DNA of 64,000 nucleotides, taken from a virus. Its lineage: Duplodnaviria > Heunggongvirae > Uroviricota > Caudoviricetes. Below are positions 6,474-54,186 of the stretch, in pieces. The translations under genes and the position numbers were made by a program. The DNA is taken from positions 8,153 to 72,152 of IMG/VR virus record IMGVR_UViG_3300003323_000621. The stretch is one strand, 5' to 3'. Position 1 is the stretch's first letter. The number at the start of each line of letters is the position of its first letter. Below the pieces are notes generated by a model, which did no database searches, was not told the origin of the DNA, and saw only the letters and a program-made list of their open reading frames with translations.

Positions 6474-8345
6474 TTATCTTCTTCTATTATTGTAGCTTTC
6501 CTGATATACTATTTTATTAACAGTAGTACCATCAAAATTGATACATTGACCATTTTGAAGGAATTTTAATCCAGCTTCACCACAATTATAGAAATAATTG
6601 AAATAGACTCCTATAGTTCCCAATAGGAACATTCTTTCATCATATTCACTTACACTACATTCACCATCAGTTAAGCAAATACCATTATGTTTTGCTTTAT
6701 TAATGATGTGTCTTGTGACACAATCAATAGAAGTACCTCCACCATCAGAAATCATTAAAATTCCTAACTCAGTAGCTTCTACCTGTCTTACACTAGTATC
6801 AAAAACATATAGATTATTAAGCATATCCATATTTAACATTGCAAGAGCAATACTCTTAGCAAACATCATATTTGATACTCCAGGAATACCTGAACCAGAA
6901 CCCATAGAACCAGATACATCTATATATAGATCAATTCTACCAAGAGGTTTTCTTTCTTCAGTAGTTAATCTATCTAACATAGAAGATTTAAATACAGGAT
7001 GTATATATTCTATACCAAATATCTCACTTATTTCATCTGCTTCAAATAAATCTATTTCTCTAGTTTGGTATCTCTTAGAGAAATAGTTTAAAGAGTTATC
7101 AAGAATATTCTTGATAGCTTCAGCTATTGCATGTTTATTAATTGCTAATTGAGCAATATCATGTCTAATATTGTTGAGATTAAGAATCTCAGTTACTCCA
7201 GCTAAATCACCTCTATCAAGATTAATACCTGCTTTTTCCAGATCTGTCATTAATTTATCTGCTTGACTAATAGCATCATCAAATCTTTGTTGAACTGATC
7301 TAGTTTTAAATAGATTATCTATTTTTTCAGCTAATTTATCATTAACAGTTTTTTCTTTAGCTTTTCTTTCTTCATTTTTCCTTTTCCATTCATCAATTTC
7401 TTCTTTCTTTAAATTTCCACTAGCATCTTGTCCTCCTGATGTATCTTTAGCTTTAGATTTACCTTCTCCATTTTCATCTCCCTGATCACAATTTCCATCA
7501 CCTTTCTGAGGATTACCAGAAGATTTTTCTCCTTTATCAGATGAAGAATTTTTCTCTGAGTCATTCTCACCTTCTTCTTTTTGTTCAGAATCAGATTTAT
7601 CTTCTCTTCCTTTTCCTTTATTTTTGTTAGAGTTTTGTGAGTTATTTCCATTTTCTTCACTATCAGAATCATCTTCATCTGATTCATTTCCATTTGATTT
7701 TTCATTTCCTTTCTTAGATTTATTATTTCCCTTAGATTTACCTTTACCTTTTGAAGAGTTGGAGTTAGAATCAGAATCTTCACTTTCATCATCACTTTCC
7801 ATACTATTCATGTCTTTCATTGCTTTCATTAATTCATTTCTTTCAGAATCAGTCATAGCATTCCACATTTCTGTAAATAAAAAATTACAGATTTCCCTGG
7901 TATACATGAAAGAAGCAATAGAATTATTATTACTAACAATTTTTAACAGACTATTATTTACCTTTTCAAGAATTTTAAACTTTACTTTATTAGAATCATT
8001 TTCAGAATCAAATCTTATATTCTCACTTTTGTTGTAGTATATAGAATATATGTCATGAATTAAATCTTCTGTAATAAAATCCTTGTAAAATTTCCTGGCA
8101 ACATTTACATCACCATTATCATTAATATCTTTAAGATTTTGATCACTTGTACCTTTACCTCTACCAACAGTATGAAAAAACTCTTTATTATTATCCCTTA
8201 TTTCTCTACAAATTTTATTCTGATCCCACCATGACATATAAGGTTTAACAATTTCAGCTCTTTTCTTACTAATAGGTGATTTCCAACTATCAAAATCAAA
8301 CCAGGAGGATGACCATCCCCCTGATTTTTTATTATTTTTGGACAT
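6474..8345 (-). CDS. von Willebrand factor A (VWA) domain protein with very long acidic Ser/Asp/Glu/Lys/Gly-rich disordered insert
   Basis: C-terminal DVSGSMGSGSG is a MIDAS DxSxS motif followed by VWA-like beta-alpha pattern; lies immediately downstream of a MoxR-type ATPase (classic pairing). Confidence 0.7.
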   Translation of the reverse strand: MSKNNKKSGGWSSSWFDFDSWKSPISKKRAEIVKPYMSWWDQNKICREIRDNNKEFFHTVGRGKGTSDQNLKDINDNGDVNVARKFYKDFITEDLIHDIYSIYYNKSENIRFDSENDSNKVKFKILEKVNNSLLKIVSNNNSIASFMYTREICNFLFTEMWNAMTDSERNELMKAMKDMNSMESDDESEDSDSNSNSSKGKGKSKGNNKSKKGNEKSNGNESDEDDSDSEENGNNSQNSNKNKGKGREDKSDSEQKEEGENDSEKNSSSDKGEKSSGNPQKGDGNCDQGDENGEGKSKAKDTSGGQDASGNLKKEEIDEWKRKNEERKAKEKTVNDKLAEKIDNLFKTRSVQQRFDDAISQADKLMTDLEKAGINLDRGDLAGVTEILNLNNIRHDIAQLAINKHAIAEAIKNILDNSLNYFSKRYQTREIDLFEADEISEIFGIEYIHPVFKSSMLDRLTTEERKPLGRIDLYIDVSGSMGSGSGIPGVSNMMFAKSIALAMLNMDMLNNLYVFDTSVRQVEATELGILMISDGGGTSIDCVTRHIINKAKHNGICLTDGECSVSEYDERMFLLGTIGVYFNYFYNCGEAGLKFLQNGQCINFDGTTVNKIVYQESYNNRRR

Positions 8346-8374
8346 ATATGTCTTTTATTAATTGTTGATCAAAA

Positions 8375-9523
8375 TTAATCTACCAATTCTACCTTAGTAA
8401 ACCTGTGCTTTACTTTCTCTTCTACTTCTTCTATAAGAGATTTAATCTCTTCTATTTGTTCTTGACCAAGTTTACCTCCTTTAGTATAAGTACTAACAAG
8501 AAGATTAATTTCATTCATAGTTCTTTCATAATGATCCTTAGATTTGATACCAGGAATTAAATCAACTTTATCAAGTACTGCTCTCATTTCAGGAGTAGTG
8601 AGCTTTTTAGAAAGAGTATTAGCTGCTGTTTCATTGATCATAATAGATGCAATTTTAACAAGTGCAGCATCTATCCTACAATTATATACAATAGATGCAG
8701 TTTTAACTAATCTTGGAACATAAGTTAATGTTCTATCACTAAGATGTTGATAAGCAACATCCAAAAATGCTTTGAGCTTATATTCAGGAATATTTACTGC
8801 TTGAATTTCTTCTTTAGTAGGAATATAAAGATCAATTGCTTTGGTATAATTCTTATCACCAGCTTTGAAATATGATTCCATTAACTGCATGTTCATTCTC
8901 TCAACTTTCATTTTAAGAATAAATCTGTCCCAGAAAGGATTTCCTTTCTCATCAGCAGGAATAACATTACATGTTCCAACAAATAAATTCCATGGGCAAG
9001 AAACTTTATCTTCTCCATTAAAGAGAATCTTCTCATTCATTATACCCAAGAAAGCATTTCTAAGTCCAGGATTAGCCTTATCAATCTCATTGATAATAAT
9101 ATAAGAAGATGTAGTAATAGGAGCTATAAGTTTCCATTCTCCATTCTGCATAAACTCCTTCATATTCATTCTACCCTTTACCTCAGAAGATCTTGTACCC
9201 TCATCAGTTTCAAGGATATATACACTCTTTTGATATGCTTTTTCACCTTCTTCTGTAGTTCTATCATGAGATGCAGCTGCATAATCTGTAACTACATTAG
9301 TTTTACCTACACCTGGAGGACCTTCCAAAAGAATTGGTAAAGAAGCAGCCTCTGCTAAAGCCAACATTTGAAATACTTCATCCTTACCTATAAGGTGAGT
9401 TACAATGTGAATATGTTTTCCTTTCTTATTATCTGATACCATAACATGTGTATTTTCTGCTTTTTTATCTACTGTATTATTCATAAAATCTTCGTTCTTA
9501 CTAATTATTAAAATAACAAACAT
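8375..9523 (-). CDS. MoxR-like AAA+ ATPase (AAA_5 / CbbQ-NorQ type)
   Basis: Walker A LLEGPPGVGKT, Walker B IIINEIDKANP, sensor-1 LFVGTCN; 382 aa, typical size. Confidence 0.75.
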   Translation of the reverse strand: MFVILIISKNEDFMNNTVDKKAENTHVMVSDNKKGKHIHIVTHLIGKDEVFQMLALAEAASLPILLEGPPGVGKTNVVTDYAAASHDRTTEEGEKAYQKSVYILETDEGTRSSEVKGRMNMKEFMQNGEWKLIAPITTSSYIIINEIDKANPGLRNAFLGIMNEKILFNGEDKVSCPWNLFVGTCNVIPADEKGNPFWDRFILKMKVERMNMQLMESYFKAGDKNYTKAIDLYIPTKEEIQAVNIPEYKLKAFLDVAYQHLSDRTLTYVPRLVKTASIVYNCRIDAALVKIASIMINETAANTLSKKLTTPEMRAVLDKVDLIPGIKSKDHYERTMNEINLLVSTYTKGGKLGQEQIEEIKSLIEEVEEKVKHRFTKVELVD

Positions 9524-10350
9524 CTATTAATCATAGATGAATGAGTGTTGTTAACATATTGTTCCTTATGTTGTTTGACTATATAAGTCTCAAAGTAATC
9601 ATCATATCTTCTGAATGTCATTACTCCATTAACATTCAACTGATAATATTTATTGTTTGGTTTTGATACAGGATATTCTTCATAGATAATTAAATTTATG
9701 TCTGTACAATTTTTTATAAATACATATTCAGAATTTATGTCTGATATATATCTACCTGACAAATGATTTAAAAATATAGGTATACCATCTCCTAATAACA
9801 TACTATTATATCCAAAAGCATCCCCCTCATATCTATTAGATTTTATTGTCAAATTTTCAATGATTGGGATACAAGTATCTAAAGTATTGACCTCTAATAA
9901 ACCATTTACAATATTAGCATATTTATTTGATAATGGTCCTGAATTAGAAAATACATCACTATATATTATTATATTATCAGATACTACTATTATTGATCCT
10001 AAATCTTCATATTTAAATTCATCTGCAATGTTAAGGAAATGTACTATCCTTTTAAAAGTATCAATATTTATCCATATAGGACCATGTGTTGTAACACTGA
10101 AATATGTATTATGTTCACTATTGATAATATCACATATATCTTGTTTTTCATATTCTAGAAAATGTACTATTTTTTCTCTAGTATAAAAAATACCACTTGT
10201 ACTAAGAATATGTTTTATAGTATTATTACTAAAATCTACATTAAATTCCTGCATATATTTCTTTTTTAGAAAAGAAAGAGAAAAAGAAATAATTCTTTTC
10301 TCTCTCTTCTTAATATTTCTCTTTAAATTTATCTTAGTCAGTAAGTTCAA
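9508..10350 (-). CDS. hypothetical protein (280 aa)
   Basis: ORF track. Confidence 0.5.
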   Translation of the reverse strand: MNLLTKINLKRNIKKREKRIISFSLSFLKKKYMQEFNVDFSNNTIKHILSTSGIFYTREKIVHFLEYEKQDICDIINSEHNTYFSVTTHGPIWINIDTFKRIVHFLNIADEFKYEDLGSIIVVSDNIIIYSDVFSNSGPLSNKYANIVNGLLEVNTLDTCIPIIENLTIKSNRYEGDAFGYNSMLLGDGIPIFLNHLSGRYISDINSEYVFIKNCTDINLIIYEEYPVSKPNNKYYQLNVNGVMTFRRYDDYFETYIVKQHKEQYVNNTHSSMINRCLLF

Positions 10351-10555
10351 AATTATTTCTAACTCTAGATTTACCCTTTGCTCTTATACCTTTTAATCTT
10401 TCATCATTAAACAATCTTTTAACTTCAGATTGAGTTAAACCATACTTTTCTTCAATTGAACCTTTACCATTATCTTTACTTTTAAGTCTGGTAAGTCCAT
10501 TCTTTAAATCTTCTTTAACAGCTGTAACAGAAATTTTTACTGTATTCATCACCAA
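10334..10555 (-). CDS. small hypothetical basic protein (73 aa)
   Basis: ORF track; coupled overlaps with neighbours. Confidence 0.4.
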   Translation of the reverse strand: MVMNTVKISVTAVKEDLKNGLTRLKSKDNGKGSIEEKYGLTQSEVKRLFNDERLKGIRAKGKSRVRNNFELTD

Positions 10556-11250
10556 TTAATTGAATTATTATTAAAATACTGAAGATGACTATTTATTTTA
10601 TTAAATACATCTTCACAATCCCACTTCCCATTATTGTATGTAGCACTTGCTGGATGTTTAGTAGTATATACTATATTACTCCAATCAAGATCACTAACAA
10701 GATCTTGAGCAACACTACCCATAGCTATAATAGGTATACTTCTTTCCTCTTTATCAATAATTTCATGAAATAAATAATGCATAAATGGTTTCCAAATACT
10801 ATGATGTTCAGGATCACCTGCTTTACCTGAAGGAGTAGTTAATGAACTATTCAACAACAATACTCCTTGATTGGCTAAATAACTAAGATCTGGATTATAT
10901 ACATTATCTGTTAAATTCATTCCATCATATACTGTCCTTTCTATTTCTCTATGTATTTCAATTAAACTTGGTTGACAAACCATTGTATTACTACAAGAAA
11001 AAGCTAATCCATCAGCAACACCTGGTTGTGGATATGGATCTTGTCCTAAAATTATACATCTTGTATCTTTAAGTGAAGTGATTTTGAAAGCCTTAAACAA
11101 ATCTTTGCTAGCTGGAAATATGGTTCTTCCAGAAGAAGATTTCTGTTTGAGATAATTGAATATGTTGTCAAAACTATCTCTCTCAATAAAAGGGGTAAAT
11201 TTTTCAATCCAATCTTCACTAAATTGTCCTCTGACATTATTTACATTCAT
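10549..11250 (-). CDS. ung: uracil-DNA glycosylase (family 1 UNG)
   Basis: Water-activating loop ILGQDPYPQPGVADGLAFS (cf. GQDPYH..GLCFS), VLLLNSSLTT (cf. LLLNAVLTV), HPASATY (cf. HPSPLSA). Confidence 0.85.
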   Translation of the reverse strand: MNVNNVRGQFSEDWIEKFTPFIERDSFDNIFNYLKQKSSSGRTIFPASKDLFKAFKITSLKDTRCIILGQDPYPQPGVADGLAFSCSNTMVCQPSLIEIHREIERTVYDGMNLTDNVYNPDLSYLANQGVLLLNSSLTTPSGKAGDPEHHSIWKPFMHYLFHEIIDKEERSIPIIAMGSVAQDLVSDLDWSNIVYTTKHPASATYNNGKWDCEDVFNKINSHLQYFNNNSINW

Positions 11251-25108: not shown

Positions 25109-25121
25109 AAATTTTAATTTG

Positions 25122-25195
25122 TGACCTTGCCAGGATTCAAACCTGGGACTTACATCTTAGAAGGATGTCACTCTATTCAGCTGAGTTACAAGGCC
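25122..25195 (-). tRNA. tRNA-Arg (anticodon TCT)
   Basis: Manual cloverleaf on the minus strand: acceptor GGCCTTG/CAAGGTC (one G.U), D-stem ACTC/GAGT, anticodon stem ACATC/GATGT with loop CTTCTAA, T-arm CCAGG-TTTGAAT-CCTGG, discriminator A. Confidence 0.7.
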
Positions 25196-25727: not shown

Positions 25728-25841
25728 GTTTTTAGTTTTTATTATTAATAAATTAAAATTATAACACCTACTGGGTATGCCAACCTTACCTACAATGGTA
25801 GGCCACAGACATTTTTTAATAGCACAGTGTTATAATTTTTG

Positions 25842-25915
25842 TGGACCCTACAGGAATTGAACCTGTAACCCCTTGATTATGAGTCAAGTGCTCTAACCAA
25901 TTGAGCTAAGGGTCC
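25842..25915 (-). tRNA. tRNA-Met (anticodon CAT; elongator type, could also be a lysidine-modified Ile2)
   Basis: Manual fold on the minus strand: acceptor GGACCCT/AGGGTCC, D-stem GCTC/GAGC, anticodon stem CTTGA/TCAAG with loop CTCATAA, T-arm ACAGG-TTCAATT-CCTGT. Confidence 0.75.
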
Positions 25916-28714: not shown

Positions 28715-28729
28715 AAAATTATATTTTTG

Positions 28730-28815
28730 TACCCCCAATGGGACTTGAACCCACACTCCCATTACTGAGAACAGGATTTTAAGTCCTGCATGTCTACCAA
28801 TTCCATCACAGGGGT
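28730..28815 (-). tRNA. tRNA-Leu (anticodon TAA), long variable arm
   Basis: Manual fold: acceptor ACCCCTG/TGGGGGT (two G.U), anticodon stem CAGGA/TCCTG with loop CTTAAAA, long variable arm, T-arm GTGGG-TTCAAGT-CCCAT; 86 nt. Confidence 0.65.
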
Positions 28816-30656: not shown

Positions 30657-31076
30657 ATTTTATTGTGTGGAGGTGAGGGGAGTTGAACCCCTGTCCAAAC
30701 AAATACAAACAATATAAGTTACATGTTTGACTAGCTTTTTCTTCCCTGTCTTGGAATATTAGACTTCCTATATATTACTTTAGTATTACTAAAATAATAT
30801 TATCCAGTTTAATTATAGTCTAAAAACTTTCACTGCTGCCCTTTAATGTTGCAGATCATTAAAAACCTCAACTTATTATTTCTCCTAATGAGGCAATAAG
30901 GATAGGAATTAAGCCATTACAGCTTCATCTTCAAAGATGGATGCTAAAACTGCATCAACATCATTTCCTACTTCAATGCTAGAAACTTCTGCATTTATTA
31001 TTTGAATACTCTTATTTAAGTGTTTACATCCTTAACACTACATGCCTATATTTATCCATAATTTGCTGTCAAAACC
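30657..31076 (-). ncRNA. ssrA: candidate tmRNA (transfer-messenger RNA, ssrA-like), phage-encoded
   Basis: Minus-strand 5' end GGGGGTGTATTGGTTTTGACAGC (cf. B. subtilis GGGGACGTTACGGATTCGACAGGG) and 3' end GGACAGGGGTTCAACTCCCCTCACCTCCA (cf. E. coli GGACGCGGGTTCAACTCCCGCCAGCTCCACCA). 7-bp acceptor GGGGGTG/CACCTCC with G3.U70 Ala identity pair. Internal GTAAACACTTAAATA resembles the B. subtilis ssrA region upstream of the resume codon, followed by an ORF ...GCA GAA GTT ... GCT GTA ATG GCT TAA. Confidence 0.75.
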
Positions 31077-31088
31077 AATACACCCCCA

Positions 31089-44933: not shown

Positions 44934-45005
44934 TGACTAATAGCTCAATGGTAGAGCAAAGTGCTGTTAACACTTGGGTTCTAGGTTCAAGTCCTAGTTA
45001 GTCAG
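44934..45005 (+). tRNA. tRNA-Asn (anticodon GTT)
   Basis: Manual fold: acceptor TGACTAA/TTAGTCA, D-stem GCTC/GAGC, anticodon stem AAGTG/CACTT with loop CTGTTAA, T-arm CTAGG-TTCAAGT-CCTAG. Confidence 0.7.
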
Positions 45006-45010
45006 CAAAT

Positions 45011-45081
45011 ATCTGGGTCATCTAATGGTAAGATGCTGGTCTCCAAAACCAGACATGGTGGTTCAAATCCATCCCTGGGTG
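45011..45081 (+). tRNA. tRNA-Trp (anticodon CCA)
   Basis: Manual fold: D-stem ATCT/AGAT, anticodon stem CTGGT/ACCAG with loop CTCCAAA, T-arm GGTGG-TTCAAAT-CCATC; acceptor ATCTGGG/CCTGGGT pairs only with three G.U wobbles. Confidence 0.55.
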
Positions 45082-45095
45082 CTAAAAAACTAAAT

Positions 45096-46055: not shown

Positions 46056-48158
46056 ATGGCTACTAAACAGACTAGAGAAACATATCAAAGAAATACAAAG
46101 AATATTTGGTTTCCTTATCAAAAAGAACCTAATGCAATTCTAGAGCATGATTTGTTTGTAGCTTATTGGCAGCAAGAAAAGGATAGATGTTTAAATGGGT
46201 TTTATCTAGCTAATGGACAAGTATATATTTCTGGTTGGTTATATTGGCATACAGTATATTGGTCTATTGAATTATCCACTACTATAAATGGAAAGGATTA
46301 TAAGACAGTAGGAACACCAACTTTTAGAGATACTGATTGGGAAATGAGTATTAATAAAGAAGAGGCAGAAAAACAAAAAAGAATTATAGAATTAGTAGGT
46401 GCTCGTGGATTTGGTAAAACTGTATGGGATGCTAGTATAGCTGGGTATTATTATACATTTTTTGATGATCTTGAAATATGTATATCTGGAGCCTATGCTA
46501 ATGATATTAAGATAGTTACTGATAAAATAGAAACAGGATTAACCAATTTACATCCAGTCTTTAGAAAGCAAAGACTCCAATCTAATTGGAAGATGGAAGT
46601 TAGAGCTGGGTTTAAAGATAAGAAAACTGGATCACCTTCAGATGAATCTTCTAATTCAAGAATAGTAATTAGAAATTTTGAAGAGGGAAATAATACTATG
46701 GCTTGTAATGGTTTAAGACCTAAATTTCATGTTATAGATGAGATAGGTAAGATTAGAAATCTTAAACCTTGTGTACTTGATACAGTTCCTTGTTGGATAA
46801 ATGAAAAGACAGGGGATTATATGGCTGTAGTGATATTATCAGGTACAGGTGGTGATATGGAAGTTGGACAAGATGCTGGAGAAATATTTTTTAATCCTGG
46901 TGAATGGAATATACTTGAGTTTGATGATGTATGGGAAAATAGAGGAAAGATAGGTTGGTTTATGCCAGCTACTAAAGCTTTATCTAAGTTTAAAGATCCT
47001 AAGAAGTTATCTGAGTTTCTTGGTATAAAACATGCAGATTTAGATAATATAGATATATTAGTTTCTAATGAAGAAAAAGTAATTGAAGAATTTATTAAAC
47101 CAAGAAGAAAAAAAGCTGAAAAAGCAGGTCAAGCAGCTTTAACTAAAGAAAAAGCATATTATCCTTTAACTCCATCAGAATCTTTTTTAGTAATATCACA
47201 AAATCCATTTAATACAGATAATGCTAAACATCAGCAAATCAGATTAAAAGAAAATGGAATAAAAGGTATTCCAGTAAAGATAATTCATGATGGAACTAAG
47301 CTTATACATGAAGTATCTCACAAACAAATAATAGAAAAGTTTCCATCTAGATCAGGAGATATGTTAGATGCTCCTATTATGATGTATGAACCTCCAATAA
47401 CTAATCCCCCATGGGGGTTATATGTAGCAGGGATTGACCCTTATAACCAAGAAGATGCAGTAGCTTCAGATTCTTTAGGAGCATGTTATATATTTAAAAG
47501 GATACATAGTATATCATCTGAATTATACCAGGATATGATAGTTGCTTCTTATGTAGCAAGACCTGATAGTATATTTGATTGGTATGAGAATGTAAGAAAC
47601 ATGTTAAAATATTATAATGCTATTGCTCTATGTGAAAATGAGAATGTAGGGTTCATTCAGTATATGAAGTTAAAAAATGATGATTATCTTTTAGCTAATC
47701 AACCAGACTGGTTAAAAGAAATTCATCCTAATTCAGATGTTGATAGAAAGAAAGGATTACATGTTACTCCCAAAATAAGACAATATTTAAATACTAATTT
47801 AAAGGCTTATTTAGATGAAGTAATTAATGAAGTAAAAGATCCAAAAACAGGGAGTATAATAAGTTCTCAATTAGGTATTCATAAAGTTATTGATCCCATT
47901 TTACTAGAGGAAATTATAAAATATAATTCCACAGGTAACTTTGATAGAATTGTAGCAGCATCACTTGCTATAACTTATGCCAGATCATTAGATCCTATGA
48001 TTAAAACTTCTAGAGGAGATGAAATAGACTCTAGATATAAATCTTATTTTAACAAAGAAAGAAAAATAGGTGGATCTTCTATGTTTGATAGAGACTTTAA
48101 GATGAGAAATTTTGGAAGTACTAAGAATAGTAAGTTAAAAAATAAAATATTTCTATAA
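46056..48158 (+). CDS. terL: terminase large subunit
   Basis: ATPase Walker A VGARGFGKT and Walker B HVIDEIG; C-terminal RNase-H-like nuclease region with GIDPYNQEDAVASD acidic residues; 700 aa, directly upstream of a portal-sized gene. Confidence 0.8.
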   Translation: MATKQTRETYQRNTKNIWFPYQKEPNAILEHDLFVAYWQQEKDRCLNGFYLANGQVYISGWLYWHTVYWSIELSTTINGKDYKTVGTPTFRDTDWEMSINKEEAEKQKRIIELVGARGFGKTVWDASIAGYYYTFFDDLEICISGAYANDIKIVTDKIETGLTNLHPVFRKQRLQSNWKMEVRAGFKDKKTGSPSDESSNSRIVIRNFEEGNNTMACNGLRPKFHVIDEIGKIRNLKPCVLDTVPCWINEKTGDYMAVVILSGTGGDMEVGQDAGEIFFNPGEWNILEFDDVWENRGKIGWFMPATKALSKFKDPKKLSEFLGIKHADLDNIDILVSNEEKVIEEFIKPRRKKAEKAGQAALTKEKAYYPLTPSESFLVISQNPFNTDNAKHQQIRLKENGIKGIPVKIIHDGTKLIHEVSHKQIIEKFPSRSGDMLDAPIMMYEPPITNPPWGLYVAGIDPYNQEDAVASDSLGACYIFKRIHSISSELYQDMIVASYVARPDSIFDWYENVRNMLKYYNAIALCENENVGFIQYMKLKNDDYLLANQPDWLKEIHPNSDVDRKKGLHVTPKIRQYLNTNLKAYLDEVINEVKDPKTGSIISSQLGIHKVIDPILLEEIIKYNSTGNFDRIVAASLAITYARSLDPMIKTSRGDEIDSRYKSYFNKERKIGGSSMFDRDFKMRNFGSTKNSKLKNKIFL

Positions 48159-50776
48159 TGGCCATTATATCAAATGCCAAAGGTTACACTAATGATGTTT
48201 ATTTAAATTTATTTCCTGATCAATATGTTTCTGAAAAAGAGAAACAAACTGAATTATGGATTAAAACAAATATGGATTATTTTAGTAATGTTGCCTATCA
48301 ACAATATTATAATAATTCTACTACATTTGTTGGAAACTATAATTTACTTAAGGGAATAATAAATAGATCTGATTTCTATGAAATGCCAGAAGTTCAATCT
48401 TTTATGGATACCCTTGAAAAGGATATGAAACTTCCAGAATATGTAAAACATTATTCTATACTTAATTCTCCAATTAATACTTTAGTAGGAGAATCTTCAA
48501 GAAGACCAGATAATGTAAGAGTAAGGGCAATGGATGATGATTCAAAAGCTGAACAACTACAGTATAATACACAGATGTTACAGCAATATTTACAACAAAT
48601 TATCCTAACTAAAATTAAATCACAATTAGCCCAACAAGGTATAGACATTGAAGATGAAGAATTTAGTGATCAAATACAACAAATAACTCTTGAACAACTT
48701 CAGGAGAATATGAAAAATTATACTTCCATGGCAGAGTCATGGGGTAATCATATACTTGAAGCATTAAAAGTTGGGTTTAATATAAAGGAAAAGTCAGAAG
48801 AAGCTTTTAGGGATTTATTAGTTTGTGCAAGGGAGCATTTTCATATTTATGAAGATAATTCTCCAATGGGTTTTGGTTGTGAAGTACTTAATCCAAAGAA
48901 TGTATGGTCTTTAACTACACCAGATAAAAAGTATACCAGAGATGCATTTGCATCAGGATATATAATGTTAATGGAATTATCTGAAGTGTTAGATAAGTTT
49001 AATTTAACACAGGAGGAAGTAGATCATTTAAGAAAAGGGTTAAGAGGGTATTATCAGTATGGTATTGCAAGAGAATCTAATCTTGTAAATGGAAATGCTC
49101 CTACAGGATCTAAATCTGTAACATATGATACTTATGATCCTTTAGTAGAACAACAAAGACAATTCATTGAATCTCAATTACAATCTAATAATATTCAGTT
49201 AGAAAACTATCTTGGTATTGGACAGAATAATATTATGAATTCTTTTGGTACTAAAGTAGTAGTTACTCAAGCTTATTGGAAATCAAAAAGAAAAGTGGGT
49301 AAACTTACTTATTTAGATCCAGAAACTAATTCTGAACAAACAGTTTTAGTTTCAGAAGATTATAAGAAAATACCTGGAGAAATTGATATTGAATGGGGAT
49401 ATATTAATCAATGGTGGAAAGGTACTAAAATAGGACAGGATGTATATATTAATGTAGAACCATTTAATTTATTTAACTATAATCCAATTATAGGAGTAAC
49501 TCATGAAATTAAGAATACTGAAGCAAGATCTTTAGTAGATCTTATGAAACCTTTTCAGGTTATTTATAATGTTTGTATGAATAAACTTTATAGATTACTT
49601 GAAAAAGATTTTGGTAAAGTGATACTTACATCAATAAGACATTTACCTAAATTAAAAGATCAGGATGAAAGTGATGCTATTGAACAATGGGAATTAATGG
49701 CAAAGGAAAAAGGTATCATTTTTATAGATGATTCTCCTGAAAACTTAGAAGCACCATCTTCTTTTAATCAGCATGCTGCAGTAGACTTATCAAGAACAGC
49801 TGAAATTCAAGGATATTATAATTTAGCTGCTCAAATTAAACAAGAATGTTGGGAATTGGTAGGTATTACAAGACAAAGAACAGGACAAATTGCAGCATCA
49901 GAAACAGCTACTGCTACTAATACTGCATTATCTCAATCATATACTCAAACAGAACCATATTTTGTTCAGCATGAGTATGTAATGAATCAATTTTATCAAG
50001 CATTATTAGATGCTGCTCAATATATTGAAGTTCAAAAACCTCAATCTACTGTATCTTATATAAATAATATAGGTGAACAAGCTTTTATTCAAGTAAATCA
50101 AGCAGATATAAAGCTTAAAGACTTACAGGTATTTGCTACTTCAAGAGTAGAAGATCAAAGGATCTTTAATGAATTAAGACAGTTAGCTCAACCTATGTTA
50201 CAAAATGGAGCTAGTATATATGATGTTTCTATGTTATATGCTACTAACTCTATTAGACAAATGCAACAAACATTTAAGATTCTTAAAGATAAACAAGATC
50301 AATTCCAGGCTCAACAACAACAAATAGAGCAACAACAATTACAACAACAACAAGAACAATTTGAAGCTGCACAAGCTCAGGCTTATCAAGATAAACTTGA
50401 AGATAGAGCTAATGAAAACTATAATAAAGAGCTTGATAGAATAAATGAGAAAGAAGTAGCAATAATTAAATCTCTTGGATTTGGTAAAGTACAAGGGGAA
50501 GATTTAAATGCAAATGGTACTCCTGATATAATGGAAAGTGCCAGATTAACTCTTGATACTACTACAGCTCAAAGAAACCATGATATTGAAATTCAAAGGT
50601 TACAGCTTGAAAGACAAAAGGCTTTAGATGCTAGAAATAAAGATATTATGGATGCAAAAAGTCAGGAAGAAGATAGAAAAGTAGCTAGAGAAAATATGAA
50701 AAATGATCTCCAAATAGCTAAAGAAAATGCTAAAGGAAGAGCAAAAAAAGCAGCAGCAACTAAAAAGAAAAAATAA
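48158..50776 (+). CDS. portal protein (candidate) with Gln-rich coiled C-terminal tail
   Basis: 872-aa gene whose start overlaps the terL stop (ATGA), the canonical portal position; C-terminal QQQQIEQQQLQQQQEQFEAAQAQ low-complexity segment. Confidence 0.55.
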   Translation: MAIISNAKGYTNDVYLNLFPDQYVSEKEKQTELWIKTNMDYFSNVAYQQYYNNSTTFVGNYNLLKGIINRSDFYEMPEVQSFMDTLEKDMKLPEYVKHYSILNSPINTLVGESSRRPDNVRVRAMDDDSKAEQLQYNTQMLQQYLQQIILTKIKSQLAQQGIDIEDEEFSDQIQQITLEQLQENMKNYTSMAESWGNHILEALKVGFNIKEKSEEAFRDLLVCAREHFHIYEDNSPMGFGCEVLNPKNVWSLTTPDKKYTRDAFASGYIMLMELSEVLDKFNLTQEEVDHLRKGLRGYYQYGIARESNLVNGNAPTGSKSVTYDTYDPLVEQQRQFIESQLQSNNIQLENYLGIGQNNIMNSFGTKVVVTQAYWKSKRKVGKLTYLDPETNSEQTVLVSEDYKKIPGEIDIEWGYINQWWKGTKIGQDVYINVEPFNLFNYNPIIGVTHEIKNTEARSLVDLMKPFQVIYNVCMNKLYRLLEKDFGKVILTSIRHLPKLKDQDESDAIEQWELMAKEKGIIFIDDSPENLEAPSSFNQHAAVDLSRTAEIQGYYNLAAQIKQECWELVGITRQRTGQIAASETATATNTALSQSYTQTEPYFVQHEYVMNQFYQALLDAAQYIEVQKPQSTVSYINNIGEQAFIQVNQADIKLKDLQVFATSRVEDQRIFNELRQLAQPMLQNGASIYDVSMLYATNSIRQMQQTFKILKDKQDQFQAQQQQIEQQQLQQQQEQFEAAQAQAYQDKLEDRANENYNKELDRINEKEVAIIKSLGFGKVQGEDLNANGTPDIMESARLTLDTTTAQRNHDIEIQRLQLERQKALDARNKDIMDAKSQEEDRKVARENMKNDLQIAKENAKGRAKKAAATKKKK

Positions 50777-50794
50777 CATCAAAAACCATAAGAT

Positions 50795-51130
50795 ATGTTA
50801 CTTACATTTAAAGCAAGAGTTAAGTTGATTTCTGAAGATGAGATGGAAATTGATAATGAAGGGATGAATATAAAATTTGAGGGAAAATGGGTATGGAGAA
50901 TGGTTTCCATACCCTATTCTGATATTTTTAGAATTGTACAGTATTCTAAAGATAAAACCCTTATATATCTTTATGGATTTGAAGAATCTCCAGAATTTCT
51001 TTTAGTATGGGAAGATTTTCAATCTGTAAATATGAAATGGAAAGCTTGTAAAACAGCAGAGTTATGTGAGGATAGTTCAACAGACAAAACATTAGATGAA
51101 GATATTAGTGAAGAAAATGATGAGGAATAA
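50795..51130 (+). CDS. hypothetical protein (111 aa)
   Basis: ORF track. Confidence 0.45.
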   Translation: MLLTFKARVKLISEDEMEIDNEGMNIKFEGKWVWRMVSIPYSDIFRIVQYSKDKTLIYLYGFEESPEFLLVWEDFQSVNMKWKACKTAELCEDSSTDKTLDEDISEENDEE

Positions 51131-51265
51131 AAAGTTAATGCTATATTAATACAAAAAATCTTACTAAAAGTATAAAATTTATTTTGTTTGTATTGATAAT
51201 CAATTTAATTTTACATTAATATATCAAAAAAGGGACATAGATAAAAACCAGAAAATAATTACATC

Positions 51266-52597
51266 ATGGCAGATAATAAATTTGAAAGACAATTTGAGGG
51301 TGATTCTCAAGAGATCTCATTATCAGAAAGAGATTTTGCTGATGATCTTGGTATGTTTGGAGTAGAAGATGCTAAAACTCTTGGAAAGAGTAAATTAGAT
51401 GAGTTTTTAAATTCTAATCCTTCATCAAACATTGATACTACTAAGATAACTAAGGTAGATGAAAATGATAATGAACCTTCTAATTCTAATGACAAATCAA
51501 AAAAGACTGATACTACAGTAGATAAGAATAGAAATAGAGAGTTAGATGAAGAAGAAAAGGAAAGAAAAGAAAGAGAGAAAACTAAAGCTCTCAATTCCTG
51601 GTTAAATGATGATGAAGAAGATCTTGATGAGAGTAATAATGATAGTGATGAAAATGAATCTAAAAAGTCTGCTACTAAACAAGTAGATAAAGACAAAGAT
51701 AAAGATACAAAACCTACTGATTCAGAAGATGAGACTTTTTCTATCTTATCTAAGGATTTATTTAGATTAGGTGTATTTAGTGCTGATGATGAAGATGAAC
51801 CAGAGATCAAAACTGGTGAAGAGTTCTTAGAAAGATTTCAGTTTGAGGCTGAAAAAAGAGCCAATGACATATTGGAAAACTTTATAAATAGATATGGTGA
51901 AGAGCATAGAAATATGTTTGAAAGTGTGTTTATTAAAGGAGTAGATCCAAAGACTTACCTAAGTTCTTTCAATAAAATTGATAATTTTAAGGATTTGGAT
52001 ATATCCAAACCAGATATACAAGAAAAAATATTCTTTGAATATTACAGAGATCAAGGACTTTCAGAGGAAAGAATTGCTAAAAAGTTTGAAAGATCAAAAG
52101 ATCTTGGTGAATTAACAGAGGATGTTAAAGATATGCATGAGTTACTTCTTGCTAAAGAAGAAAAGAATCTTGTTAAATTAGAACAGGAAAAGCAAGAGGA
52201 ACTTAATAGAAAGACACAAAGGGAAAAACTTTATCAGCAAAATATAGGTTCTATTTTACAGAACAAATTAAAAGCTGGTGATTTTGATGGAATTCCTGTA
52301 ACACAGAAAGAGGCTCAAGATACATATAGCTATATGACACAAAAACCATATAGACTTCCAAATGGAGAGCTTATTACTGAAATGCACAAAGATTGGCTGG
52401 AATTAGATAGACCAGAAAATCATGAATTAAAAGTAAAAGTTGCATTGTTACTAAAAAATAAAATGGATCTGTCAAAAGTAGTTAAAAAAGCAATTAGTAA
52501 AAACACTAATGGTTTGTGGTCAGACTTAACAGGAAAAAATAATAAAAATAGATCTGAGGATAAATCTCCAACAAAAAGATCAACATTTTTTGAATAA
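51266..52597 (+). CDS. highly charged protein, candidate scaffolding protein
   Basis: Asp/Glu/Lys-rich, predicted helical and disordered (EEEKERKEREKTKAL..., DEDEPEIKTGEEF...); lies between portal and major capsid genes. Confidence 0.4.
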   Translation: MADNKFERQFEGDSQEISLSERDFADDLGMFGVEDAKTLGKSKLDEFLNSNPSSNIDTTKITKVDENDNEPSNSNDKSKKTDTTVDKNRNRELDEEEKERKEREKTKALNSWLNDDEEDLDESNNDSDENESKKSATKQVDKDKDKDTKPTDSEDETFSILSKDLFRLGVFSADDEDEPEIKTGEEFLERFQFEAEKRANDILENFINRYGEEHRNMFESVFIKGVDPKTYLSSFNKIDNFKDLDISKPDIQEKIFFEYYRDQGLSEERIAKKFERSKDLGELTEDVKDMHELLLAKEEKNLVKLEQEKQEELNRKTQREKLYQQNIGSILQNKLKAGDFDGIPVTQKEAQDTYSYMTQKPYRLPNGELITEMHKDWLELDRPENHELKVKVALLLKNKMDLSKVVKKAISKNTNGLWSDLTGKNNKNRSEDKSPTKRSTFFE

Positions 52598-52635
52598 AAA
52601 ACAAATTCAATCTCTAATTTAAACTTATAGAAAAA

Positions 52636-54186
52636 ATGGCTTTACAAACAATACAAGGTTTTACTGGGTTTGCTGCCACAAGAGTATCTTCTTTGGATAG
52701 AAGAGCAATTGGTAAACTTACAGATTCAAACCACTTGGAGTCCTTGCACATGACTGAACCTTCAGACTATGATAAGAAAATTATCAGTTTGTATAGTCAG
52801 ACTTCACTTTATTCCAATGATTTCTTGCAAATGTTGGACAAGAGTACTCCATATTACATTACTGGAAACTCTGATTTCTTCAAATGGGATATTCAGGTTC
52901 CTTATCAATTCCCTAAAGTTATTGAAGTACCAACAGCAACAGCTAACTTAACTAAGCCTGGTATTGATGGTCAAGAATTTACTTTAGTATTTGATAGAGA
53001 TGAGTTTGTTAAAGGTGATGTTATTTCTTCTCAAAAATATGAATTGTCTACACCTTTAGTAGTTGTTAAAGATCCAGTTCCTTATAATTCTGGTTTCTTA
53101 TATACTGTTACTATAGTATCTAATAATCCTAAAGTAGACTTTGTACAATCTAAGTTCTTCCAACCAGGAGTTGAATTTGAATTAATCCACAACCATGTTG
53201 GTGAGTTCACTCAAGATCTTTCTGGTTTACCATATATGGGAGATAAGATTACCCTCTATGAAGCATTAGGTGCTGGCTTTGGTGTAGAACATACTATTAC
53301 TAAATGGGCTGATGCTAGAATGTTAAGAGATGGTAATGGTAATCCTCTTGATGTAATGGTATATGGTAAAGTTGGTAGAAATCAACTTCCTGAAAAAATG
53401 AACATGGATGTAAGGTGGGAACCTTATGTAGAGTTCTTGATGAGGAAGAAGATGATGGATATGAAAACTAATTACATGATTTTTGGTAGACCTGGTTCTG
53501 CAAAAGACAATGGTTCTAAGCAAAATATTCATAAAATTAGTTCTGGTATTTATCACAAAATGTTAAATAATGGTCAGGCTGCTTTCTACAATAGAGGTCA
53601 GTTCTCCATTTCTTTCTTAAGAGATATTTTTGGTGATATTTTCTACAGAAGAGTAGATATTAAAGATAGAAAGGTTAAGATATATACTAATGAGGCTGGT
53701 TTTGAAGTATTCAAAACTGCTGCTAAAAATGATCTTTTAAATTCTGGTTTAACAGTTATTGCTGATAATAGATTTATTCAGGGATCTGGTCAAAACATGA
53801 CTGTTAGTTATGCATTTGAAAGTATAATTACTTCTGATACTGGTAGAATTGATTTAGTACACTTAAGACAATTAGACCTTCCAAATACTAACTTAGAGTT
53901 TGGTCAGAATAAAAAATCTACTCCTATATTCTTTGTGTTTGATGTATCACCTCAAGGTGATGGTACACTTCAAAATAATATCAGAGAAGTAAGAATGAAA
54001 TCTCAACCTTCTATGACTTGGGGTTATGTAGATGGTAGAGCACATCACTTAGGTTTTGCTAAATCTCAAGGTATGAGTTCTGCTAATAAATTCCCTGGTT
54101 ATTTAGTATGGATGGAAGATAGATGTGATGTATTTATTGAGGATCTTTCAAGATGTTTTGTAATTAAGGAAAATCCTTCATTCTAA
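52636..54186 (+). CDS. major capsid protein (candidate)
   Basis: 516 aa, immediately after the scaffold-like gene in the head module; followed by a GC-containing intergenic stem. Confidence 0.5.
   Translation: MALQTIQGFTGFAATRVSSLDRRAIGKLTDSNHLESLHMTEPSDYDKKIISLYSQTSLYSNDFLQMLDKSTPYYITGNSDFFKWDIQVPYQFPKVIEVPTATANLTKPGIDGQEFTLVFDRDEFVKGDVISSQKYELSTPLVVVKDPVPYNSGFLYTVTIVSNNPKVDFVQSKFFQPGVEFELIHNHVGEFTQDLSGLPYMGDKITLYEALGAGFGVEHTITKWADARMLRDGNGNPLDVMVYGKVGRNQLPEKMNMDVRWEPYVEFLMRKKMMDMKTNYMIFGRPGSAKDNGSKQNIHKISSGIYHKMLNNGQAAFYNRGQFSISFLRDIFGDIFYRRVDIKDRKVKIYTNEAGFEVFKTAAKNDLLNSGLTVIADNRFIQGSGQNMTVSYAFESIITSDTGRIDLVHLRQLDLPNTNLEFGQNKKSTPIFFVFDVSPQGDGTLQNNIREVRMKSQPSMTWGYVDGRAHHLGFAKSQGMSSANKFPGYLVWMEDRCDVFIEDLSRCFVIKENPSF

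Follow-up and report, generated by a model that had tools for sequence, protein, structure and literature searches.

A MoxR-type ATPase paired with a MIDAS-bearing VWA protein in the replication arm of an uncultured phage: a candidate two-component protein-remodelling chaperone

Why would a phage carry, among its replication genes, a MoxR-type AAA+ ATPase together with a protein bearing a von Willebrand factor A (VWA) domain? The question is raised by a 64,000-nucleotide (nt) stretch of the IMG/VR record IMGVR_UViG_3300003323_000621 (positions 8,153 to 72,152), referred to in full as the window, in which an ATPase gene (8375..9523) and a partner gene (6474..8345) lie side by side. [quoted passage not shown] The reading that we favor, with moderate confidence, is that the two proteins form a two-component MoxR/VWA protein-remodelling chaperone of the RavA-ViaA or NorQ-NorD type, expressed with the phage replication genes. 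Computation establishes the domain identities of both proteins, the presence of intact nucleotide-binding and MIDAS residues, the strict linkage of the two genes and their replication-module context.

The features of the ATPase are given below; like those of the partner, their motif coordinates were checked against the sequence (residues are numbered in amino acids, aa, and AF2 stands for AlphaFold2).

8375..9523, minus strand: RavA-like MoxR AAA+ ATPase gene, an ORF of 382 aa
9484, minus strand: likely true start of the ATPase, Met14, giving 369 aa; homologues begin nearby
9299..9322, minus strand: Walker A (P-loop), GPPGVGKT, aa 68-75; G68, P70, G71, K74 and T75 invariant in 48 homologues
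9194..9214, minus strand: LETDEGT in the helix-2-insert region, aa 104-110; L104 to G109 invariant in 48 homologues
9077..9103, minus strand: Walker B variant YIIINEIDK, aa 141-149; Asn145 in place of Asp, catalytic Glu146 kept
8999..9028, minus strand: pre-sensor-1 beta-hairpin, aa 166-175; DSSP strands 166-168 and 173-175, between alpha3 and beta4 of the AF2 model
8966..8974, minus strand: sensor 1, T184-C185-N186, invariant in 48 homologues
8921..8935, minus strand: FWDRF with the putative arginine finger R200, present in 189/189 family ATPases and aligned to YDRM of RavA

The assignment of this protein to the RavA/MoxR group, which the earlier note had proposed over one to the McrB or dynein families, is borne out by several searches. 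The protein matches bpMoxR (PF20030; 77 bits, 1.1e-21, cutoff 27) and AAA_5 (47 bits, 4e-12, cutoff 22) in Pfam, and a single-sequence search of the PDB places RavA first and midasin next. When a profile of 48 family sequences was used against the PDB, RavA (4.8e-11) and the Cytophaga MoxR protein 2r44 (2.5e-5) were recovered, and no match to McrB or to a dynein heavy chain was found. RavA is also the best NCBIfam match, the NCBIfam and PADLOC matches being weak and at the level of the P-loop. On sequence comparison, the ATPase groups with RavA/MoxR, within the RavA-like branch. Translation probably starts at Met14 (9484), since homologues begin there; the first 13 codons of the ORF (9484-9523, minus strand) overlap with the ORF upstream and are absent from homologues.

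The AF2 model of the ATPase (predicted local distance difference test, pLDDT, 88; predicted template modelling score 0.83) contains both the helix-2 insert region (106-140) and the hairpin at 166-175, as judged from secondary structure rather than by superposition. In addition to the residues listed above, E146, N186, R200 and the sensor 2 arginine R264 are invariant in the 48 homologues. The LETDEGT motif is located between beta2 and the Walker B strand of the model. It has been described that the helix-2 insert of NorQ touches the finger of NorD (PMC13036017), and LETDEGT is a candidate pore loop or, on this analogy, a candidate partner-contact loop.

The partner protein shows a composite organization, with a helical N-terminal domain, a low-complexity linker and a C-terminal VWA domain.

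6474..8345, minus strand: VWA/MIDAS partner gene, an ORF of 623 aa
7806..8258, minus strand: helical N-terminal domain, aa 30-180; pLDDT 72-89, alignment occupancy about 1.0 in 120 members
7407..7802, minus strand: disordered low-complexity linker rich in S, K, N, G, E and D, aa 182-313; pLDDT about 30, net charge -12 to -13
7098..7406, minus strand: helical middle region, aa 314-416; helices in the AF2 model, occupancy 0.9-1.0 from about aa 341
6936..7097, minus strand: conserved pre-VWA segment, aa 417-470; occupancy 1.0, with F422, L448, H449, P450 and G469 conserved; pLDDT 33-42
6513..6935, minus strand: VWA domain, aa 471-611, modelled as a VWA fold
6900..6920, minus strand: MIDAS D-x-S-x-S motif, DVSGSMG (D476, S478, S480), invariant in 120 relatives
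6732..6743, minus strand: MIDAS threonine, GGGT (T538), invariant in 120 relatives
6660..6674, minus strand: MIDAS aspartate, LTDGE (D560), invariant in 120 relatives

Fold searches of the model identify the C-terminal region as a Rossmann-like alpha/beta VWA fold, in agreement with what had been proposed from its DVSGSMG motif, and the MIDAS is complete, its five residues D476, S478, S480, T538 and D560 being invariant again in a second set of 82 sequences. Together with the PF20030 and AAA_5 matches of the ATPase and with RavA as its best relative, this upholds the original description of a MoxR-type ATPase and a VWA/MIDAS partner. Curated VWA models do not recognize the domain: the window partner has no Pfam VWA match, and among 82 members six touch DUF2201 and one touches VWA_CoxE, all below cutoff. 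The scans of the VWA protein with NCBIfam and PADLOC gave nothing meaningful. The absence of a Pfam VWA match reflects model coverage and is no evidence against the fold. Ten close homologues of the partner were recovered, and an exhaustive search gave 202 clusters at 50% identity.

The N-terminal domain is kept in 135 of 139 full-length representatives. No relatives of it were detected outside the family, the fold searches of the partner giving VWA matches only. A homology search with the N-terminal domain alone returned zero matches; it missed even the query protein itself and so carries no information. Inspection of the domain by eye found no HExxH motif of the kind that a degenerate metallopeptidase of the DUF2201_N type would suggest. 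Long family members carry no effector domains. Between the helical middle region and the VWA domain, the pre-VWA segment, which hhalign also aligns to gp63 of the Bacillus phage 0305phi8-36, is a candidate ATPase-docking element or 'finger' by analogy with the known pairs.

The segment which the earlier note had singled out as an extraordinary insert of roughly 190 aa, resembling a polyanionic DNA mimic, is predicted to be disordered, as stated there, and is shorter: it spans aa 182-313 by pLDDT and 164 aa by a composition window, overall about 130-165 aa. In the interval that separates the helical middle from the N-terminal domain (aa 178-330), acidic residues number 41 and basic ones 28, giving a net charge of -13 (-0.09 per residue), a charged fraction of 0.45 and 4% of hydrophobic residues. 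The linker is a polyampholyte, not a polyanion. Homologues at 46-65% identity have a linker of like composition and do not share its sequence, and across 120 members the segment found at this fixed position measures from 0 to 290 aa (median 31), being D/S-rich, Q/G/P-rich or N-rich depending on the member. Alignment occupancy is 0.08-0.5 at the linker versus about 1.0 in the flanking domains. The content of residues with AT-rich or GC-rich codons follows locus GC content (rho -0.70 and +0.52, respectively; n=26, without phylogenetic correction). In 96 of 114 members the linker carries a net negative charge, and a few reach -60 to -77 (P0019, -73; P0058, -62; P0064, -77). Recent repeat expansion was considered as its origin and rejected, as the linker DNA holds tiny tandem arrays only. 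Membership in the DNA-mimic anti-restriction class was likewise rejected, the linker being disordered and unconserved, with a low net charge per residue and 28 basic residues.

NorD is built of an N-terminal domain, a disordered linker and a VWA domain; its residues 242-393 have never been resolved, deletions within the linker abolish function, and it has been proposed that rotation of the VWA domain by the ATPase stretches the linker (PMC9976466, PMC13036017). Midasin, in turn, has a flexible D/E-rich region immediately before its MIDAS domain (PMC6286127). The architecture of the phage partner (N-terminal domain 30-180, linker 182-313, VWA 471-611) fits the NorD/CbbO type when its AF2 model is set against the published description of NorD. 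Given its unconserved sequence, its variable length, its GC-tracking composition and a position matching those of the NorD linker and the midasin tether, the segment is best read as the expected flexible tether, at the long end of the family range, and not as an anomaly. In a separate comparison, the length of the ATPase N-terminal extension and the pre-MIDAS length of the partner showed a weak negative correlation (rho -0.27, p 0.04), uncorrected for phylogeny and obtained with one regular-expression position wrong for the window protein.

The linkage of both genes was surveyed in 80 retrieved loci plus L001 and L002, nine of which lack upstream sequence at contig ends. A MoxR-family ATPase gene is located directly upstream of the partner gene, on the same strand, in 73 of the 73 loci with upstream sequence; the intergenic gap has a median of 72 nt, and measures 29 nt in the window, where the pair is tightly packed among co-directional genes. 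Within five genes upstream, in the 63 loci with at least 3 kb of upstream sequence, a uracil-DNA glycosylase (UDG) is found in 47, a superfamily 2 (SF2) helicase in 40 and a primase in 19, and structural genes never appear. In 41 of 69 loci the next downstream gene points the other way, so that the pair often ends the replication block. No conserved third gene of the operon was found among 83 loci, nor any conserved metalloenzyme gene accompanying the pair in the locus neighborhoods.

In the window itself (27% GC, AT-rich), a minus-strand block extends to about 40 kb and is followed by a plus-strand block. The minus-strand arm contains genes for a DNA polymerase, a DnaB-like helicase, an SF2 helicase, a primase, a UDG and recombination nucleases, while the terminase, portal and major capsid genes are found on the plus-strand arm (46056-54186, plus strand). 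The pair therefore sits, as the earlier note had it, in a phage replication module marked by helicase, primase and UDG genes. The gene nearest to the ATPase on its upstream side is a 280-aa ORF (9508-10350, minus strand), without Pfam, PHROG, NCBIfam or PADLOC match; it is not conserved across loci, and L001 has an unrelated 335-aa ORF in its place. Next comes a small ORF (10334-10555, minus strand) of a cluster of 73-120 aa proteins (cluster 10), without family assignment, which recurs between the UDG and MoxR genes in 23 loci. The UDG-superfamily gene (10549-11250, minus strand; Pfam UDG 2.2e-9, phrog_12143) is the commonest upstream companion.

Outside the window, relatives of the VWA partner are encoded by at least 198 IMG/VR contigs, and the ATPase search gave 577 clusters at 90% identity, with PF20030 in all members listed. 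On the other hand, a scan of 185,579 species-representative genomes with the ATPase profile recovered three loci only, all of them on contigs of metagenome-assembled genomes and all with an adjacent partner. These contigs (L085, L086 and L087; 9-100 kb, GC 30-42%) are labelled Micavibrio, Mollicutes and Clostridium, and may be binned phage contigs. When the region, the 623-aa partner and a further two typical members of the family were searched by blastn and tblastn against 50,697 deposited phage genomes, no match was found, so that no cultured or annotated phage in this set has the family. To judge from these searches, the family is almost exclusively viral and essentially absent from cellular genomes.

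The source of the window is, as far as its genes can tell, a phage some 121 kb in size and a distant relative of the crAss-like group. Its placement near crAss-like, Cellulophaga and Flavobacterium phages is based on the terminase, portal and major capsid genes; the nearest match of the terminase is from Leptolyngbya phage Lbo-JY46 (38%), these three groups coming next at about 29%. Lbo-JY46, the nearest deposited genome by terminase large subunit, is not among the tblastn matches of the ATPase, and a single-protein scan of viral contigs with the terminase, aimed at tying the pair to one lineage, gave no matches. Literature searches found no papers joining crAss-like phages with MoxR, vWA or AAA. 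Promoter and terminator scans scored no better than shuffled sequence. The genome also encodes a transfer-messenger RNA (30665-31087, minus strand; Rfam RF00023, 78.7 bits, E 7e-29), for which ARAGORN gives an unusually long tag peptide, AEVSSIEVGNDVDAVLASIFEDEAVMA, ending at a stop, and five tRNA genes (Arg-tct, Met, Leu-taa, Asn and Trp), located at 25121-25195, 25841-25915 and 28729-28815 on the minus strand and at 44934-45006 and 45011-45082 on the plus strand.

A distinctive and unexpected trait of the family concerns the Walker B motif of the ATPase. The signature NE[VI]DK is present in 189 of 189 family ATPases with a readable motif, and the family profile pairs N145-E146 with the DE of RavA (FLDEIWKA), 2r44 (LADEVNRS) and ClpC1 (LFDEIEKA); N145 falls at the end of the beta3 strand in the AF2 model. 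By contrast, gp66 of 0305phi8-36 has a canonical Walker B (LDEIFK). The family-wide loss of the Mg-coordinating Asp, with all the other catalytic residues retained, is unusual. In the relatives L067 and L068, the ATPase gene is split at the P-loop codons (L067:3697-4805) by a group I intron (RF00028, 64.8 bits, at L067:4437-4704), which carries an ORF for a GIY-YIG homing endonuclease (L067:3753-4673; Pfam GIY-YIG 2.6e-7). Group I introns and homing elements typically home into conserved, important genes.

How might such a pair work? If the pair behaves like NorQD, CbbQO, RavA-ViaA and midasin, the ATPase would assemble as a hexameric ring on which the VWA domain would dock, possibly by inserting the pre-VWA segment into the pore. 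The MIDAS would then capture, by its bound Mg2+, a carboxylate of the target protein, and ATP-driven movement of the VWA domain relative to the N-terminal domain could exert a pull on the target by way of the flexible linker. In this scheme the linker would be an entropic tether, hydrophilic and in most members net-negative, free to drift in length and composition. As for the client, since the pair keeps constant company with genes for helicase, primase and UDG, we consider a virion protein less likely than one involved in replication or DNA metabolism, or than a protein of the host acted upon early in infection.

Several observations weigh against this model. No single neighboring gene is universal across loci, and gene position is indirect evidence for the timing of expression or for function. 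Half of the family has almost no linker, and the stretching mechanism of NorD may therefore not transfer as such. In the monomer model, the conserved segments 417-470 and 482-490 both have a pLDDT below 50, which leaves the pore 'finger' a candidate. Lastly, an Asp to Asn change in Walker B usually weakens hydrolysis in other P-loop ATPases, and since all members of the family have Asn at this position, the ATPase may not act as a motor.

The Walker B change lends itself to a different explanation, in which the ATPase would act not as a motor but as a nucleotide-dependent switch or scaffold that hydrolyses slowly or not at all. The universality of NE[VI]DK, its alignment with the DE of RavA, 2r44 and ClpC1, and the canonical motif of gp66 speak in its favor; however, Glu146, the sensor 1 Asn186, R200 and the P-loop Lys and Thr are all invariant, as expected if hydrolysis is under selection, and Asn could still position the Mg-bound water. 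We consider such a switch very unlikely. Much the same low standing is given to a counter-defence decoy, in which the acidic disordered segment would mimic nucleic acid or form condensates and thus tie up DNA-binding defence proteins of the host, the ATPase and VWA domain being accessory. The early/replication location, the net negative linker of most members and the strongly polyanionic linkers of a few relatives would suit such a role. The charge balance of the window linker does not, nor does the fact that many members have no linker, the median being 31 aa, and nevertheless keep an invariant MIDAS and ATPase; linker sequence is unconserved, its composition tracks GC content and there is no meaningful PADLOC match. 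Known DNA mimics such as Ocr and ArdA are folded proteins with highly charged surfaces, which also counts against a decoy.

An involvement in virion or tail assembly has an experimental precedent, as the pair of the Acidianus two-tailed virus (ATV), formed by p618 (MoxR) and p892 (VWA), is the only viral MoxR-VWA pair with experiments, in which p618 interacts with p892 and with tail proteins (PMC4124505). The same role has been proposed by Iyer et al. for group 2.2 jumbo phages (PMC7824862), and Sulfolobus monocaudavirus 1 (SMV1) carries the same adjacent gene pair. Against it, the phage pair lies in the minus-strand replication arm, and it is the opposite arm that holds, at 46-54 kb, the genes for terminase, portal and major capsid proteins; the upstream neighbors in 63 loci are helicase, UDG and primase genes, never structural ones; and similarity to the SMV1 VWA protein is confined to the generic VWA core (hhalign 83%). 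An assembly chaperone is, on balance, improbable here. We would place at a similarly low level the insertion of a metal cofactor into a phage or host metalloenzyme, as carried out by NorQD (Fe into nitric oxide reductase), CoxDE and CobST. Several well-studied MoxR/VWA pairs do precisely this (PMC9976466, PMC13036017), and gp66/gp63 of 0305phi8-36 are annotated as 'metalloprotein chaperonin', but no conserved metalloenzyme gene travels with the pair and its nearest sequence relatives, RavA and ViaA, are not established metal insertases. Metal insertion would in any case be a special case of the remodelling chaperone and not a separate mechanism.

A bolder version of the remodelling chaperone can also be formulated. 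According to it, a virus-exclusive MoxR/VWA branch with an Asn Walker B would act on the replisome or on a host factor during genome replication in a large uncultured lineage of 95-140 kb phages with a distant relationship to the crAss-like ones, with the acidic tether serving as a pseudo-ligand of the MIDAS in cis or as a nucleic acid-like decoy. We regard this as unlikely, a little less so than virion assembly or metal insertion; if true, it would represent a replication-associated AAA+ remodeller of a type undescribed in phage biology.

MoxR/VWA chaperones are widespread, their mechanism is understood in few cases, and for their role in viruses there is a single archaeal example to go by. 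Having no Pfam match, the VWA partner is overlooked entirely by current annotation, and naming the family would improve the annotation of a large group of uncultured phages. The identity of the client would show why a phage needs an ATP-driven, MIDAS-targeted remodeller during replication. Besides, the natural linker lengths of 0-290 aa and the invariant Walker B Asn provide ready variants for testing the linker-stretching model of NorQD.

Among the characterized systems, E. coli RavA-ViaA is the closest. RavA is the best match of the ATPase in both PDB and NCBIfam, both ATPases match bpMoxR, ViaA is the best-scoring characterized VWA partner (hhalign 95%, E 3e-8), and both loci share the gene order, ATPase then VWA, and a tight packing. 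The phage ATPase, however, lacks the LARA and C-terminal domains of RavA (LARA_dom and ATPase_RavA_C were absent from it in a Pfam scan that found both in the RavA control), and has NE in Walker B where RavA has DE. The alignment with ViaA covers about 89 columns of the VWA core, the N-terminal domain and linker of the phage protein being unrelated, and ViaA passes Pfam VWA_CoxE and VWA_2 whereas the phage partner passes no VWA model. Since the LARA domain and a ViaA-type N-terminal domain are absent, the phage proteins are, on this sequence evidence, not orthologues of RavA-ViaA. With respect to NorQ-NorD and CbbQ-CbbO, the phage ATPase belongs to the RavA-like branch and not to the CbbQ/NorQ/GvpN branch, no nor or cbb client gene is found near the pair, and the phage linker is far more variable in length. 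Rea1/midasin, for its part, is one eukaryotic protein chain, about 5000 aa long, in which six AAA modules are fused; its clients are ribosome assembly factors.

The best Pfam model of the phage ATPase, PF20030, is also shared with the MoxR-vWA ternary conflict systems, which were reportedly described by Kaur et al. in eLife in 2020 and are said to be the source of this model. A bpMoxR match was considered as a sign of a conflict system and rejected by a control: RavA itself scores 187-191 bits on PF20030, which therefore marks the RavA-like MoxR branch generally. Unlike the ternary systems, the phage pair is virus-encoded and has neither a third component (VMAP, iSTAND, FtsH or beta-propeller) nor an effector domain, and for this reason it is not taken as one of them. 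The defence or counter-defence context raised in the earlier note consequently finds no backing, as there is no meaningful PADLOC match and no conserved third component or effector.

In viruses, MoxR-VWA pairs have been described before, from ATV, SMV1, 0305phi8-36 (gp66/gp63) and group 2.2 jumbo phages. The bicaudavirus pairs (ATV p618/p892 and SMV1) are likewise virus-encoded and adjacent, with ATPases that match bpMoxR and VWA proteins that escape Pfam models; identity to the phage ATPase is 23% over the AAA core, and the VWA similarity is limited to the core. The ATV proteins have been tied to virions and tail development (PMC4124505), while the phage pair is part of a replication module. 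In 0305phi8-36 the MoxR and VWA genes lie beside a RecQ helicase gene in the non-structural arm. The top structural match of the full-length partner in BFVD is A7KV72, which we infer to be gp63 of this phage, the entry and gp63 both being 553 aa long. The relationship is distant (hhalign gives 80% with the VWA protein and 98% with the AAA core), the DE of Walker B is retained in gp66, and two small ORFs lie between the MoxR and VWA genes of 0305phi8-36. Neither the pair nor its linker would surprise a specialist; what makes the family a sensible subject for experiments is its size, its confinement to viruses, its place among replication genes and its variant Walker B. What is new here is an uncharacterized and abundant family, virus-only and fixed in the replication module, with a VWA domain invisible to profiles, a private N-terminal domain, a hypervariable linker and an Asn in Walker B.

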